In this document: positions 1,425-56,242 of the stretch, piece by piece | Layout of the letters: each line of letters starts with the position of its first letter | How positions within the stretch are numbered: position 1 is the first letter of the stretch | DNA from: Octopus vulgaris | Lineage: Eukaryota | Assembly (NCBI GenBank): GCA_951406725.2 | Contig: OX597828.1 | Span: 45,570,001 to 45,634,000 of the forward strand | Direction: 5' to 3' | DNA length: 64,000 nucleotides | Made by a program: the position numbers and the translations under genes | Notes under the pieces: model-generated | The model's database searches: none | What the model was told of the DNA's origin: nothing | Seen by the model: only the letters and a program-made list of their open reading frames with translations

Positions 1425-1863
1425 TTAAGAGTATGCTTAGGACAGGAGCATCTTTGATTATAAAACGCCTGAGTCGTGGACATTCTGGGCTTAAACAACA
1501 ACGACGACGACGACAACGATGACAGCAACAACTACAATAACACTGGCTAAGTCAATTCAGATGAATGAAATATACTGCCAATGGCAGTAGAGTTTACTTT
1601 AGGACAGAGGGTGTGGTAATTTTTTCTAAAATGAATTTCTTAGTAGGAACATAAAATAAGTATAGCCAGCTGTCAGTTGCAAGTGACTATGTGTATGATA
1701 GTACGTACCATATTTAGGGCACCCTCTGGTTATTGCCGTTAAAACGAACATAGCTATCTTTTCATAATACGAGAATGGATTAGATATTTGAATTTGAGGG
1801 TAAGGAATACGAGAAAGAAGATATGCAGATTTCACATTTCTATTACAAAGTAATTATATTTTG

Positions 1864-2560
1864 TAGTTAGTGGTAATCATGTATGGCACTATTTCATTCT
1901 GTTTTGAAATCTTCAGCATGATTTCCCTTGTAGCATATTTTAATTCTTATATAGTTAGTGGTAATCATGTATGGCACTATTTCATTCTGTTTTGAAATCT
2001 TCAGCATGATTTCCCCTGTAGCATATTTTAATTCTTATATAGTTAGTGGTAATCATGTATGGCACTATTTCATTCTGTTTTGAAATCTTCAGCATGATTT
2101 CGCCTGTAGCATATTTTAATTCTTATATAGTTAGTGGTAATCATGTATGGCACTATTTCATTCTGTTTTGAAATCTTCAGCATGATTTCGCCTGTAGCAT
2201 ATTTTAATTCTTATATAGTTAGTGGTAATCATGTATGGCACTATTTCATTCTGTTTTGAAATCTTCAGCATGATTTCCCATGTAGCATATTTTAATTCTT
2301 ATATAGTTAGTGGTAATCATGTATGGCACTATTTCATTCTGTTTTGAAATCTTCAGCATGATTTCCCATGTAGCATATTTTACTTCTTATTTAGTTAGTG
2401 GTAATCATGTATGGCACTATTTCATTCTGTTTTGAAATCTTCAGCATGATTTCCCCTGTAGCATATTTTACTTCTTATATAGTTAGTGGTAATCATGTAT
2501 GGCACTATTTCATTCTGTTTTGAAATCTTCAGCATGATTTCCCCGGCAGCATATTTTTAA
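1864..2560. repeat. 88-bp tandem repeat, 8 nearly identical copies
   Basis: Unit TAGTTAGTGGTAATCATG..TTCTTATA restarts at 1864, 1952, 2040, 2128, 2216, 2304, 2392, 2480; variation nearly confined to the tttcccttg/tttcgcctg/tttcccatg stretch. Confidence 0.97.
1875..1923 (-). ncRNA. Putative minimal type I hammerhead ribozyme (first of 8, one per 88-bp monomer)
   Basis: Minus strand: AATCATG | CTGAAGA | T-TTC-AAAACA-GAA-T | GAAA | TAGTGCCA | TA | CATGATT. Perfect 7-bp stem I, canonical CUGANGA and GAAA, UH site; stems II and III weak. Confidence 0.65.
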
Positions 2561-2656
2561 TTAAGTATATTACTATATTACGAAGAGAGACGCTTCACTG
2601 AAATTAAACATGAAAAGAATTACAGTATGGATGGAATTCAAGGAGAATTTTCTGTT

Positions 2657-2846
2657 TTTCTTCTTCTTCTTCTTCTTCTTCTTCTTCTTCTTCTTCTTCT
2701 TCGTCTACAACTACTACTACTACTTCTTTTTCTTCTTCTTCTTCTTCTTCTTCTTCTTCTTCTTCTTCTTCTTCTTCTTCTTCTTCTTCTTCTTCTTCTT
2801 CTTCTTCTTCTTCTTCTTCTTCTTCTTCTTCTTCTTCTTCTTCTTC
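2657..2846. repeat. (CTT)n microsatellite
   Basis: Direct reading. Confidence 0.97.
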
Positions 2847-3751
2847 ATAGAACGTTAGTAGTTTAGCAATCGAAAGAAAGAAGCAGCAGTCTAAGTGTGT
2901 AGCTAGAAAATAAACACCGTTTTGCTTTATTCATCTATAAAATGTTCATGCGTATATGCGTCTATTGCGAGCAGACAAACACGTCGTCTTAAACTAGAAC
3001 CTTTCAATTTTCATCCAGTGGAACATCGAGATATGATAGCTGGCAGCTGTAAAGAGAGAGAGAGAGAGAGAGAGGATTACTAGAGCTGAGCTGGAACTCA
3101 TTTATAGCTGAGTCAACGGGAGCAATGTGAAAAGATATGCTTTAATCGTAAACATAAAGTGCAGCTTGATTCAATGGAGGCAACACCTTAACCACGAGAA
3201 TACGCGCATTCTAATTAGGCAAAAGGCTTATTCACATTTTAATGAGGAGCCTTCAGCTGTTGTCATCGATTTCTTTCGAAGAAGAAGTTAGTGATCCTTA
3301 ATGAATGTTTAAATAACCATAACATCTTTCCGTTTAATCCTCAGCTAAATCTATCCCAACATATGTATGCCTCCCTATATTTCTTCATTAACGACCCACG
3401 CTGAATTGGTCATAGATTAATTATTACACAGATGCAGGCAACTTAAGAAGCAATGGTGTATATCATAAGCAAGGCATTGAATTACGAAGGAGAGTGTGCA
3501 GTAGCGTGATCGGTTGGGAGTGGAGTAGGCTTGAAGTAGTGGTTCTTATTATCTGGTATGATGGATATGTTTTGAAGAGTGGTGCTGATGGTGATGAAGT
3601 ATGTGCCATTCCACTATAACAAGGTTTAATTTATCATCAAACTTCTTAATTTGATTATTTTTATAATTTGTCAATTTCAATTTATATTTCACTGGAAATT
3701 TGATTGGTCTTTTCTTTTTTAGCTTTGACGAGTTTTTGGTATTGTACAGGC

Positions 3752-18582: not shown

Positions 18583-19125
18583 AGTGGCTGTATGGTAAGT
18601 AGCTTGCTAACCAACCACATGGTTCCGGGTTCAGTCCCACTGCGTGGCATCTTGGGCAAGTGTCTTCTGCTATAGCCCCGGGCCTCCAATGCCTTGTGAG
18701 TGGATTTGGTAGACGGAAACTGAAAGAAGCCTGTCGTATATGTGAGTGGATTTGGTAGACGGAAACTGAAAGAAGCCTGTCGTATATGTGAGTGGATTTG
18801 GTAGACGAAAACTGAAAGAAGCCTGTCGTATATGTGAGTGGATTTGGTAGACGGAAACTGAAGGAAGACTGTCGTATATATGTATATATATATATATAAG
18901 TGTGTGTGTATATGTTTGTGTGTCTGTGTTTGTCCCCCTAGCATTGCTTGACAACCGATGCTGGTGTGTTTACGTCCCGTCACTTAGCGGTTCGGCAAAA
19001 AGAGACCGATAGAATAAGTACTGGGCTTACAAAGAATAAGTCCCGGGGTTGATTTGCTCGACTAAAGGCGGTGCTCCAGCATGGCCGCCGTCAAATGACC
19101 GAAACAAGTAAAAGAGTAAAAGAGT
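18583..19125 (+). mobile_element. SINE family A with internal 46-bp unit x4
   Basis: TGTGAGTGGATTTGG..CTGTCGTATA at 18695, 18741, 18787, 18833. Confidence 0.9.
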
Positions 19126-31677: not shown

Positions 31678-32262
31678 CAAGGGGCTAAACACAGAGAGGA
31701 CAAACAAGGACAGACAAACGGATTAAAGTCGGTTATATCGACCCCAGTGCATAACTGGTCCTTAATTTATCGACCCCCAAAGGATGATAGGCAAAGTCGA
31801 CCTCGGCGGAATTTGAACTCAGAACGTAGCGGCAGTCGAAATACCTATTTCTTTACTACCCACAAGGGGCTAAACACAGAGTGGACAAACAAGGACAGAC
31901 AAACGGTTTAAGTCGATTATATCGACCCCAGTGCCTAACTGGTACTTATTTAATCGACCGCGAAAGGATGAAAGGCAAAGTCGACCTCGGAGGAATTTGA
32001 ACTCAGAACGCAGCGGCAGAAGAAATACCTATTTCTTTATTACCCACAAGGGGCCAAACACAGAGGGGACAAACAAGGACAGACATAGGTATTAAGTCGA
32101 TTACATCGACCCTAGTGCGTAACTGGTACTTAATTTATCGACCCCGAAAGGATGAAAGGCAAAGTCGACCTCGGCGGAATTTGAACTCAGAACGTAGCGG
32201 CAGAAGAAATACCGCTAAGTATTTCGCCCGGCGCGTTAGCGATTCTGCCAGCTCGCCGCCTT
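31678..32262 (-). mobile_element. SINE family C with ~183-bp body in three tandem units
   Basis: Head AGGCGGCGAGCTGGCAGAA..GAGTTCAAATTCC, conserved GCCTTTCATCCTTTCGGGGTCGATAAAT; CAAGGGGC(T/C)AAACACAGAG recurs ~183 bp apart. Confidence 0.88.
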
Positions 32263-33823: not shown

Positions 33824-34983
33824 CAGGGTGCGTTAGTTATTTGAGGACTTACATTTTTGCGTCATTGCTGCATTTTTTGCTAAATCTGTGTAATATTTGG
33901 TTCAGAAAATTATAAAGGCTGAGCATAGTGATTTAGAAATATCTCGATTTATAAATGTTGCCAGAGCTAGAGAAGATGGAAATGTATCACCAGTATCAAA
34001 GCATAAAAAAGCATTCTAAATGCTCTGAAATCATCAGAACACCTGAATTTATCCAGCAAGTTCAACAGACCATTGATTACAATCCCAGAAAGTCCATGAG
34101 GTCAATTGCAAATGAGCTCCATGTGTCAGAAGAAACAGTTAGAAATGTTCTCTACGAAGACAACAGATACAAGTCTTATATGATGAGGAAAGGTCAATTT
34201 GTCAGAAAAAGCAAAAGAAAATCACTATATCAGATCTAAAAGGCTCTTAAACAAACTGAAAAATCCAGCAGAAGAAAATTTGATTTGGTTTTGCTCACAC
34301 GGGAAAAATTTCGACCAAGGTCAAAAAGTTAAAATAAGAAGTGACAGATGGCTATGTGCAGACCCTTCTGAAGTTCCAAGTGTTATGCATACAAAATCTC
34401 CTGCAACTGTCATGGTTTTAGGGGTTATCAGCATTGAAGGACATGTGATGCCTGTTTACTTTTTTCCTTAGAGTTAACTCTACCGCCTAAAGTGGAGTCC
34501 TGGAAATAATTAAGACCTGGATAGACAGTGTATGCAATGGAAGACCATATGTGTTTCAGTAAGACTCTGCACTATCACACATGGTTCTAGTAACACAGGA
34601 ATGGATGGCGCAAAATTTTCATGATCGCATAACCCCTAACATTTGGCCTCCTAATTCCCGGCATCTCAATCGATTATTGCATGCGAAGCGATGTTGAGAG
34701 AGAGGTCAATGAACGCGCCCATAACACCAAAGATTCTTTGAAAGCTGCCATAGTGAGAATAATGTCCAAAATGAACCAGGACCATTTGATTCGAGCATGT
34801 AGATGATTTAGATCTCATAGAGAAGCAGTTGGTGATGCTGAAGGTGGCTTTATTTAATAACTTAATAGAAAAGGTTTATTTCTATCCTCATAACATTTTT
34901 TGATAAACAAAGTTGTCTGTTATTATATATATGTTTTTTTTTTTATAAACATGAATCTGTCCTCAAATATCTTATGCACCCTG
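33824..34983 (+). mobile_element. Tc1/mariner DD37D (maT-type) transposon, decayed
   Basis: TA-flanked TIRs CAGGGTGC..ATTTGAGGAC / GTCCTCAAAT..GCACCCTG; transposase pieces RWLCADPSEVP..VMVLGVIS, VFQ*DSA, IWPPNS; spacing fits D37D; stops and frameshifts. Confidence 0.9.
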
Positions 34984-44208: not shown

Positions 44209-44620
44209 GGCGGCGAGCTGGAAGAATCGTTGGCACACCGGGCGAAATGCTTAGCGGTATTTCGTCTGCCGCTACGTTCTGAGTTCTAATTCTGCCGAGG
44301 TGTTTGCCTTTCATCCTTTCGGGGTCGATTAAATAAGTACCAGTTACGCACTGGGGTTGATCTAATCGACTTAATCCGTTTGTATGTCCTTGTTTGTCTT
44401 CTCTGTGTTTAGCTCTTTGTGGGCAGTAAAGAAATAGGTATTTCGTCTGCCGTTACGTTCTGAGTTCAAATTCCGCTGAGGTCGACTTTGCCTTTCATCC
44501 ATTCGGGGTCGATTAAATAAGTACCTGTTACGCACTGGGGTCGATGCAACAGACTTAATCTCTTTGTCCGTCCTTGTTTGTCGCCTCTGTATTTAGCCCC
44601 TTGTGGACAATAAAGAAATA
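44209..44620 (+). mobile_element. SINE family C, two tandem body units
   Basis: Head then GGTATTTCGTCTGCCG repeated ~182 bp apart. Confidence 0.88.
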
Positions 44621-44634
44621 TGTATAAATATTTA

Positions 44635-54251: not shown

Positions 54252-54453
54252 ATTCGTCGCATTAGTTGAAAGACATTTTGTGGATGGAATATTTCTCTCT
54301 GTCATTTATCATATATCTTTGTTCTTGCATATTGTTTTCATTCGTCTTATATATTTTCCCCTATTCCTTATAACTAACGGTTCAGTCTGGAGACCTCGAC
54401 ATTTCTTGTCTTATTTTTTTCTTTGTGTTTATTGATCTTGCCTGCACCACTTT

Positions 54454-55113
54454 ATGTTAACAAAACCAAAAAAGAAAGAACAATTAAAAACCCTTCCCTA
54501 CATCTCTACACACAACCCACTTAACAATGAGGCCTTCAGCACCATACTACAAAGCACAGCCCTACTAAAGGGAGACCCAAAGATGAACCGGATCCTCGAA
54601 ACACACACCATCATTAAAAGTAAACGGCAACCAAAATCCTTGAAAAGGATTTTAACCCAAGCTAAACTGCACCCAACATCAACCACAAAACCAGCAGTTA
54701 GAAAATGTGGAAGGCCCAACTGCGGAATCTGTGTCATCTTAGTAGAAGGTTCAGAATTTATACTAGAACAAGGCCATCAGTTCACCATTAGAACAAACTT
54801 CACCTGTGCATCAGAAAACTTAATTTACGTCTTAACATGCGCAGGCTGCAATAGGCAATATATAGGCAATACAAAAAATAGCTTACGTAACAGGATGGCG
54901 GTGCATAAATCACAAATTAGAAACCCTGAATACCGGAAAATACCGGTAAGCGGACACATAGATAGATGTGCTGCAAATGAAAATCCGAAATTTACAACTT
55001 ACCCACTTTACAAATTCAGTGACAGCGTAACCTTCACGCAACGCCAAAATAAAGAACTTTATTTCATCAAAAAATTTAGACCAAGTTTGAACACCCTGGT
55101 CCAGGAATATTAA
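54454..55113 (+). CDS. C-terminal part of Penelope-like element ORF: Zn-finger linker + GIY-YIG endonuclease
   Basis: 219 open codons: CGRPNCGIC, FTCASENLIYVLTCAGCNRQYIGNT..LRNRMAVH..GH..KELYFIKKF..SLN; Neptune-like architecture; RT missing (5' truncated). Confidence 0.9.
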   Translation: MLTKPKKKEQLKTLPYISTHNPLNNEAFSTILQSTALLKGDPKMNRILETHTIIKSKRQPKSLKRILTQAKLHPTSTTKPAVRKCGRPNCGICVILVEGSEFILEQGHQFTIRTNFTCASENLIYVLTCAGCNRQYIGNTKNSLRNRMAVHKSQIRNPEYRKIPVSGHIDRCAANENPKFTTYPLYKFSDSVTFTQRQNKELYFIKKFRPSLNTLVQEY

Positions 55114-55360
55114 AACAAAACATTGGTCTTCCGAAAAAGAAAAAAACGAAACTCTGCCACAACCACTACGACTGCTCCCACTAACACTACCACTACTACA
55201 ACCACCGTGGTCACTGTTACTACGGCCACAGTTAGAGAATTAAAATAGTGGAAGTGGGGGCAATTACAATTTCTCAGATCCTTAAACAGTCACTCCCGCT
55301 GGCAGTGGTATATCTTAGGGAAGGAAAAATTTATAAAAAGAATTTTTTTCTCTGCGAACA

Positions 55361-55642
55361 GATCTGATTTTGATTAGTCAAAAAATTGATGACGTTTTAC
55401 CTCAGTAGTCAAGCTTGTCGCCATGCTTGATTGGTTTCCCTACAAGATACAGTTATGGGTCAGGTCTAATTCTGATTCGTTAAAAAATTTATGACGTTTT
55501 TCTTCCGTGGTCAAACTAACCAGGATACAATTATGGGTCAGATCTAATTTTGATTCGCTAAAAAATTGATGACGTTTTTCTTCCGTGGTCAAACTTGTCG
55601 TTCTGCTTGGCTGGTTTCCTAAACAGGATACAGTTGGGGGTC
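55361..55642. repeat. ~100-bp tandem repeat x3 (middle copy internally deleted)
   Basis: TCT(G/A)ATT(T/C)TGATT..AAAAAATT(G/T)ATGACGTTTT..GATACA(G/A)TT..GGGTC recurs three times. Confidence 0.85.
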
Positions 55643-56000
55643 TTTTCCTTATAATCGTTGAAGCTTGGCTTTGATTGGTTTGGAATTATATGACGTCAGT
55701 GAACAGTGCCAGAGACCACAGCTACTACTGCTTTCACAGCCACAACTTAACATAGTTTACCAAAATTACGCTAATAGTCGACAACCAAGAATCACTACTG
55801 TTGCTCCCATCGGAACACAAGGTAAAATCTATAATGAATTCCTGCACTACACTTGACAAAGCAGTAAGGAATGACTTACACCTTATAATATATTTTTCGC
55901 CTTTTCAAGAACATGGATTCTATTGAATGTATATAGCATGGACTCTATTGAATGTATGAAACAATTATGAACTATTCCATTATACTCTTTATTATAAAAA

Positions 56001-56052
56001 AATTCTTTTTGATAAGGTTCGTTATTTCAAGAACCGAAACATGTAAAAATTA
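56001..56052 (+). ncRNA. Putative minimal hammerhead, U3-A8 core
   Basis: AATTCTTT | TTGATAA | GGTTC-10nt-GAACC | GAAA | CATG | TA | AAAATT. Confidence 0.68.
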
Positions 56053-56129
56053 AAATTTATCTAATATAGTGGCATTTTCAAACTTCTTTTTAACAAATAT
56101 ATACCCACTCGTATACGACCTAATCTTAT

Positions 56130-56242
<113 letters not shown>

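Follow-up and report, generated by a model that had tools for sequence, protein, structure and literature searches.

A minisatellite with one hammerhead ribozyme motif in each 88-bp unit raises the question of whether it is a very small retrozyme, cut as RNA to 88-nt monomers and spreading, or the relic of a ribozyme that was multiplied where it lay. A first-pass annotation of the window, by which we mean the whole 64-kb stretch of Octopus vulgaris DNA analysed here, proposed the former and gave the latter, a locally amplified dead hammerhead of the Penelope-like element (PLE) type, as a caveat. It is the caveat that is now the best-supported reading. The array is a minisatellite of a single locus and not a dispersed mobile unit; it lies inside a larger fossil repeat, its motif is predicted to misfold, and the retrozyme proposal found no support. 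We consider it probable that the array is a locally expanded, decayed hammerhead from an old non-autonomous element of the Penelope type.

The tandem array and its hammerhead motif

In the 64-kb window TRF reports a period of 88 with 7.9 copies and 98% matches (Table 1), and the unit alignment and the Rfam matches likewise confirm the eight units of about 88 bp with an identical minus-strand motif that had been described. The minus strand of 8/8 units reads AATCATG-CTGAAGA-TTTCAAAACAGAAT-GAAA-TAGTGCCA-TA-CATGATT, in which one strand of the 7-bp stem I is followed by CUGAAGA, the stem II region (14 nt), GAAA, the stem III insert (8 nt), UA and, finally, the other strand of stem I. The canonical core boxes (CUGANGA, GAAA and UH, in type I order) and a perfect closing stem I, whose 7 bp compare with the about 6 bp expected of it, are present in all eight units, as had been claimed. 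The annotated cut position, which is predicted from the motif to follow an AUA triplet, was reproduced, and so were the weak points: instead of a stable stem II with G10.1-C11.1 there are 3 bp over a U-U at 10.1/11.1, and stem III is a near-palindrome with mismatches, whereas it is perfect in the majority of the family to which the motif belongs.

A search with the Hammerhead_1 model (RF00163), which the annotation had suggested, matched each unit, but at 23.7 bits, which is below the Rfam gathering score of 34; the E-value per unit was 0.026 in a 6-kb search and 0.0013 in a 301-nt search. It had also been pointed out that all unit-to-unit variation falls outside the motif. With respect to location this is true of every variable column in the unit alignment, but the weight of the observation is slight: the chance of variation avoiding the motif is 0.047 (4 variable sites, units 1–7), 0.022 (counted as 5 events) or 0.10 (sites in one C-run treated as a single cluster), which is weak evidence of constraint. 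Sequence variants are common to neighbouring units, the pattern that stepwise local duplication gives.

Table 1. Features of the array and of the surrounding parent element (positions in the window)
Feature	Position	Strand	Basis
Parent 3' part, downstream of last hammerhead	1723..1863	-	Profile match 1939-1728; end at 1723
Tandem array, 7.9 units of 88 bp	1864..2562	-	TRF and unit alignment
Leftmost unit's type I hammerhead motif, 47 nt	1876..1922	-	Rfam RF00163, 23.7 bits
Predicted cleavage site, after AUA, repeats every 88 nt	1881..1882	-	Computed from motif
Stem III near-palindrome	1883..1892	-	Self-pairing -2.6 kcal/mol vs -8.6 kcal/mol for commonest family form
Identical 47-nt hammerhead motifs in other units	1964, 2052, 2140, 2228, 2316, 2404, 2492	-	RF00163, 23.7 bits each, and sequence identity
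Parent element directly upstream of first hammerhead	2563..2667	-	Profile match 2667-2477
(TTC)63 microsatellite, expanded within same fossil element	2658..2846		TRF; parent matches on both sides
Most 5' detected parent piece (5'-truncated copy)	2828..2917	-	Profile match 2917-2828, E 2.4e-10

A single locus inside a dispersed, decaying repeat

The 23-nt junction between units (at most 1 mismatch) has 7 matches in the 2.8-Gb genome, and 7/7 lie within the array, so that the spread to many loci which Cervera and de la Pena ask of a retrozyme is not seen: the junction occurs in one array only. The genome-wide search with the monomer that had been recommended did bring up dispersed relatives. A single unit as query gave at least 47 matches from 40 scored of 217 candidates, 39 of them outside the window with 81–95% identity, mostly over the hammerhead, and a 24-nt stretch of the motif (at most 2 mismatches) has 256 matches genome-wide, 8 in the array and at least 248 elsewhere, as compared with 0 for the reversed control. 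The covarying stems that were also to be looked for did not appear, with 0 compensatory changes in 23 motifs aligned. The relatives are solitary, with one hammerhead copy per 3 kb in 22/22 cases; none of the 75 family loci scanned has, over the element, a tandem repeat that reaches 30 bp, and among 100 listed of the 256 motif matches only the array's own motifs have neighbours within 8 kb. At G000:C6:48596931 and 48604960 a variant is common to two family motifs, which lie 8 kb from each other and are likely a local segmental duplication.

The dispersed loci have several hundred bases of context in common with each other and define a non-coding parent repeat with a length or period of about 600–670 nt (profile and linker coordinates). 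Its 3' ends are fixed, in that of 69 detected 48 cluster in 33 columns some 160 nt beyond the cut site, and its 5' ends are variable with starts spread over the profile, which is the pattern of a fixed 3' end with 5' truncation known from PLEs. Moreover, in 11/83 loci a linker joins the 3' end to the start of the next copy, as in the pseudo-LTR tandems of PLEs, it being noted that 9 of these 11 built the linker profile or came from the linker query. Mean pairwise identity among 22 copies is 61%, and by this measure of divergence the copies are old; the lack of compensatory changes and the scarcity of intact cores (see below) mark them as decaying. In the family majority stem II has 4 bp over U-U, which is therefore the family state, and the 10-nt palindrome of stem III is perfect; variation falls on position 7, which is the free one.

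When copies were retrieved through their flank (28 upstream-retrieved loci minus 6 without an alignable motif region), identity was 0.85 in the core, 0.84 in the stems and 0.80 in the adjacent upstream sequence. Only 1/21 of them (the query's own locus also being left out of this count) keeps all 12 core bases, while the array keeps 12/12. This speaks against reading the array as a fossil, although a detection bias may explain it because the motif was flagged for being intact.

On either side of the array the parent profile has collinear matches (2917-2828, 2667-2477, 1939-1728), and the 3' part in the window ends near the common 3' end of the family, about 160 nt past the cut site. The (TTC)63 microsatellite, too, is enclosed by this element. 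From these matches, the array is an expansion within a single copy that is truncated at its 5' end. In organism B (X2) one 823-nt contig, about 96% alike, covers 1495-1941 unbroken, i.e., flank plus a whole unit, departs from the query at 1941 and then continues for 370 nt. The last unit of the array leaves the repeat at the same position, so that the contig fits a single unit; organism B thus seems, from one contig seen from one side, to hold the orthologous locus with one unit. The run of organism A (X1) has 4 differences from the window in the flank. Its flank contig, at a depth of 4.4, ends 30 nt inside the array, and the contigs of the unit reach depths of 59.5 and 41.6, i.e., 9–14 times as much.

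Two further runs, guessed to be RNA and consisting of assembled contigs, in which small or circular RNA would not show, are neutral with respect to transcription of the array. X3 does not cover the unit, and X4 has four contigs over it (records 28–31) with 4 differences each, which are other family copies; one of them, 1849 nt long at depth 29, bears another family hammerhead, so that some copies may sit in transcripts. No host gene came to light around the array: 145 of 262 frames of the window scanned with Pfam gave only transposon domains, and 40 of 101 upstream frames scanned in the same way gave one LINE-type RT and three sub-threshold matches. Short exons would escape such a frame scan, and an intronic position of the array is therefore possible.

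The genome is rich in PLEs (148/150 scored GIY-YIG candidates matched) and contains an intact 781-aa frame with RT and GIY-YIG domains. However, PLE frames from L091–L102 match none of the family loci in tblastn, but only an unrelated PLE fragment at 54.4–55.1 kb of the window; no coding frame tied to the parent was found in this way. The parent profile, at E 1e-6, has no match in 30 GIY-YIG loci (30 of the 148 matches) or in 12 wider PLE regions. An autonomous partner has thus not been found among the PLE loci compared, which counts against a PLE parent, and since no sequence is common to the parent and the 30 GIY-YIG loci, the link to PLEs is by architecture only. A possible YIG reading in the upstream part of the parent, seen by eye, was dropped because the residues that follow misfit the domain.

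Several other repeats lie in or near the window. At 54436-56130 (+) there is the 3' fragment of a young Penelope-like element with a GIY-YIG domain, 93–94% identical to the 781-aa family; near 56009-56050, just before a TA run, a hammerhead-like motif with a U3-A8 core variant and a CATG palindrome was seen by eye. Hammerhead-like motifs near GIY-YIG loci also occur in L092 at about 5730 (-), L093 at about 2098 (-) and L097 at 349 (+), 3534 (-) and 6706 (-); they are of several unrelated sequence types, some within inverted repeats. A helix-turn-helix fragment of a Tc3-type transposase, below the Pfam cut-off, lies at 33955-34236 (+), and about 16–18 kb to the left of the window an 814-aa frame with RVT_1 and zf-RVT domains (L159:1898-4339, +) belongs to a LINE-type element. 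Local tandems occur elsewhere in the window, too, among them other pieces of dispersed repeats, which agrees with a local origin of the array: 46 bp at 18695-18879 (four units, matching the dispersed repeat at 1101-1146), 184 bp at 31678-32213 and at 44256-44625, and 78 bp at 55446-55595, the last in the 3' region of the PLE fragment.

Predicted folding and competing explanations

In a single unit stem I has pair probabilities of 0.89–1.0. The probability of stem II, however, is 0.00, versus 0.92–0.98 in 3/3 Rfam-passing controls from the same genome. The folding of the 88-nt monomer does not stand out from that of shuffles (z -0.87), and although its MFE is -6.2 kcal/mol per unit, that fold is not a hammerhead. 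For two strands of the array motif the double-hammerhead fold lies 8.2 kcal/mol above the best fold; the gap is 0–0.4 kcal/mol for the best-preserved copies (L016, L025 and L026) and ranges from 0 to 19.8 across 22 motifs. Because the double hammerhead is near the two-strand minimum in these three copies, the ancestor likely worked as a dimer. Compared with the family majority, the window allele has lost the fourth pair of stem II and has a mismatch in the stem III palindrome, and the change in stem II is predicted to lengthen a rival helix that pairs the GAAA box. It should be noted that ViennaRNA leaves out core and tertiary stabilisation and that most other family copies also score poorly as monomers. 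The array motif is predicted from these folds to be a weak or silent ribozyme.

The origin of the array is accordingly best pictured in five steps. It would begin with what the comparison of copies brings out, namely hundreds of decayed, non-coding copies of about 600–670 nt with one type I hammerhead about 160 nt from the 3' end. Their parent would have been a non-autonomous element of the Penelope type, in effect an old retrozyme, acting as a dimer via its palindromic stem III. The copy in the window then, as comparison with the family majority indicates, came to depart from it in stem II and stem III. Within this copy an 88-bp piece bearing the motif would have been duplicated where it lay, slippage or unequal crossing-over then adding further units, presumably once the lineage of organism B had diverged. 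Any transcript that is made from the minus strand should mostly form stem I, bury its GAAA box in the competing helix and cut poorly. A TAATTA hexamer is present at both ends of the array (1851-1856 and 2558-2563); that these hexamers seeded the first duplication could be so but is a guess only, because it implies a unit of 91 bp and not of 88.

The same local origin could have had a different outcome, in that the tandem layout restored activity: with stem III pairing between neighbours, 88-nt pieces would be released and perhaps circularised by a host ligase, and the array would be a retrozyme at birth that has not moved. Core and perfect 7-bp stem I are indeed intact in 8/8 units, the variation between units avoids the motif (p 0.02–0.10), and hammerheads with a short stem III cleave better as dimers in the accessible texts of PMC7229834, PMC4209133 and PMC6765202. 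In the real two-unit stretch the double fold (-6.3 kcal/mol) also beats two single folds (-1.8 kcal/mol). But it lies 18 kcal/mol above the best fold of -24.4 kcal/mol, and nowhere in the array does stem III pairing between units exceed 0.001; the allele that was amplified is just the one without one stem II pair and without the perfect palindrome; no promoter or host gene was identified in the longer frames scanned; and 8/9 tested Xenopus dimers remained uncleaved according to the accessible part of Li et al. (2026). We therefore regard an active array as unlikely, bearing in mind that in axolotl a hammerhead whose helix II has a U-U at its base remains active, with 22% cleavage of the monomer in 1 h (PMC7229834, accessible text), which weighs against the fossil reading. 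Quite improbable is the bolder version in which a solo, dimer-dependent hammerhead was silent while it stood alone (as it still seems to do in organism B) and gained self-cleavage when duplication placed copies 88 nt apart. If this were true, the ribozyme RNA circles from this locus would be among the smallest that an animal genome encodes, and if the array cleaved at all, it would allow a direct test of whether duplication alone switches on a dimer-type hammerhead.

If an RNA circle had been copied into a multimer that then inserted here, the 88-mer would be a mini-retrozyme with a mobility of its own. One hammerhead per unit, head to tail, would agree with this, and young PLEs with intact 781-aa RT and GIY-YIG frames could supply the enzymes. 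This reading is largely refuted, and we give it very little credence: there is no second locus for the junction in 2.8 Gb, both flanks are the parent element rather than a foreign target site, this locus seems to have a single unit in organism B, and the variants run in neighbouring blocks. An assembly artefact, which units 98% alike might suggest, is slightly less credible still, since the units differ in a patterned way and their depth in X1 is 9–14 times that of the flank, X1 being perhaps not fully independent of the assembly. Finally, a score below the gathering threshold and the absence of covariation within the family (23 motifs) could be taken to mean that the likeness to a hammerhead has arisen by chance in AT-rich DNA. 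We consider this as good as negligible, because 0/20,000 dinucleotide shuffles of the 88-bp unit meet a descriptor of core plus stems, in the majority of the family stem II is better and the stem III palindrome is perfect, it is the free position 7 that varies, and the best-preserved copies fold as double hammerheads at minimum energy. The motif in the array is a real hammerhead homologue.

Relation to known hammerhead systems

The locally expanded, decayed hammerhead that we favour is closest to what has been described recently by Li, Clavereau and Pollet (2026; bioRxiv 10.64898/2026.07.22.740005), who propose local tandem amplification of PLE terminal repeats as the origin of non-LTR retrozymes; here and below the comparison is with the accessible portions of the reports cited. 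Their consensus lengths span 51–972 bp and average 98 bp in one lineage of fish, and cleavage was found in 1/9 tested dimers. The array resembles their retrozymes in its tandem type I hammerhead units, in a size within this range, in a probable origin by local amplification of a PLE-type end and in its likely inactivity, and its 8 units are near their common maximum of 7. It also falls under their operational rule for a retrozyme, at least 2 consecutive units with a complete motif and an MFE below -5 kcal/mol (8 units and -6.2 kcal/mol, computed with a descriptor that is not exactly theirs). Unlike the cases in their sample (31 vertebrates, 3 insects and 1 coral), as far as the accessible part describes them, the parent of the array is short and non-coding with an autonomous partner not found, and a probable single-copy orthologue exists. 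As read here, the array is ordinary, yet it is a clean before-and-after example of their route, apparently single in a related organism and eightfold here. A pipeline that looks for tandem repeats plus motif would count this single-locus, probably misfolded minisatellite as an active retrozyme.

Classical non-LTR retrozymes, according to the accessible text of PMC7229834, give RNAs of 170–400 nt, occupy many loci, are abundantly transcribed and have a ribozyme that is mostly free to fold. With such metazoan retrozymes (Cervera and de la Pena, 2020) the array has in common the type I hammerhead in each head-to-tail unit and the low GC; motifs that depend on dimers and a U-U at the base of helix II also occur in those of axolotl. 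It differs from them in being at one locus and in its predicted misfold, and its monomer of 88 nt is shorter than the 170–400 nt or so that is characteristic of them. The remark in the annotation that 88 nt is less than usual is therefore correct for the classical retrozymes but does not make the size unprecedented, in view of the lengths of Li et al. (2026). Indeed, the parent of about 600–670 nt resembles metazoan retrozymes more than the 88-mer does.

PLE hammerheads, in the available descriptions, have low activity in vitro and lie near the 3' end of 5'-truncated partial tandems (PMC8557442, PMC4209133), and their dependence on dimers has been reviewed (PMC6765202). The array family is like them in its short palindromic stem III suited to dimers and in its mostly solo motifs in scattered truncated copies. 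However, PLE hammerheads usually have a long stem II with G10.1-C11.1 and a stem I of 4–5 bp, whereas in the family stem II comprises 4 bp over U-U and stem I comprises 7 bp, and unlike PLEs the family has no RT-EN frame linked to it. The W-elements of schistosomes (PMC8490949) and the newt satellites (cited in PMC7229834) are likewise tandem DNA with type I hammerheads of short stem III and many degenerate copies, but, from what is accessible of these sources, they are multi-locus and transcribed, and some have been shown to cleave. In the literature searched on octopus plus hammerhead and on minisatellite plus hammerhead plus Penelope the parent family is undescribed; it is a family of a known kind.

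Other hammerheads of the genome pass the Rfam threshold. L146:1501-1547 (-), i.e., G000:C5:6546758-6546804, is a canonical type I hammerhead of 45.5 bits near the Rfam consensus, which is solo within 3 kb and whose stem II is predicted to fold well; by these predictions it would be a better candidate for activity than the array. Five more type I hammerheads that pass lie in L147, L148 and L151 (about 1501-1608), which form one family with a stem II of about 70 nt, and in L149 and L150; L147 has a second copy, inverted.
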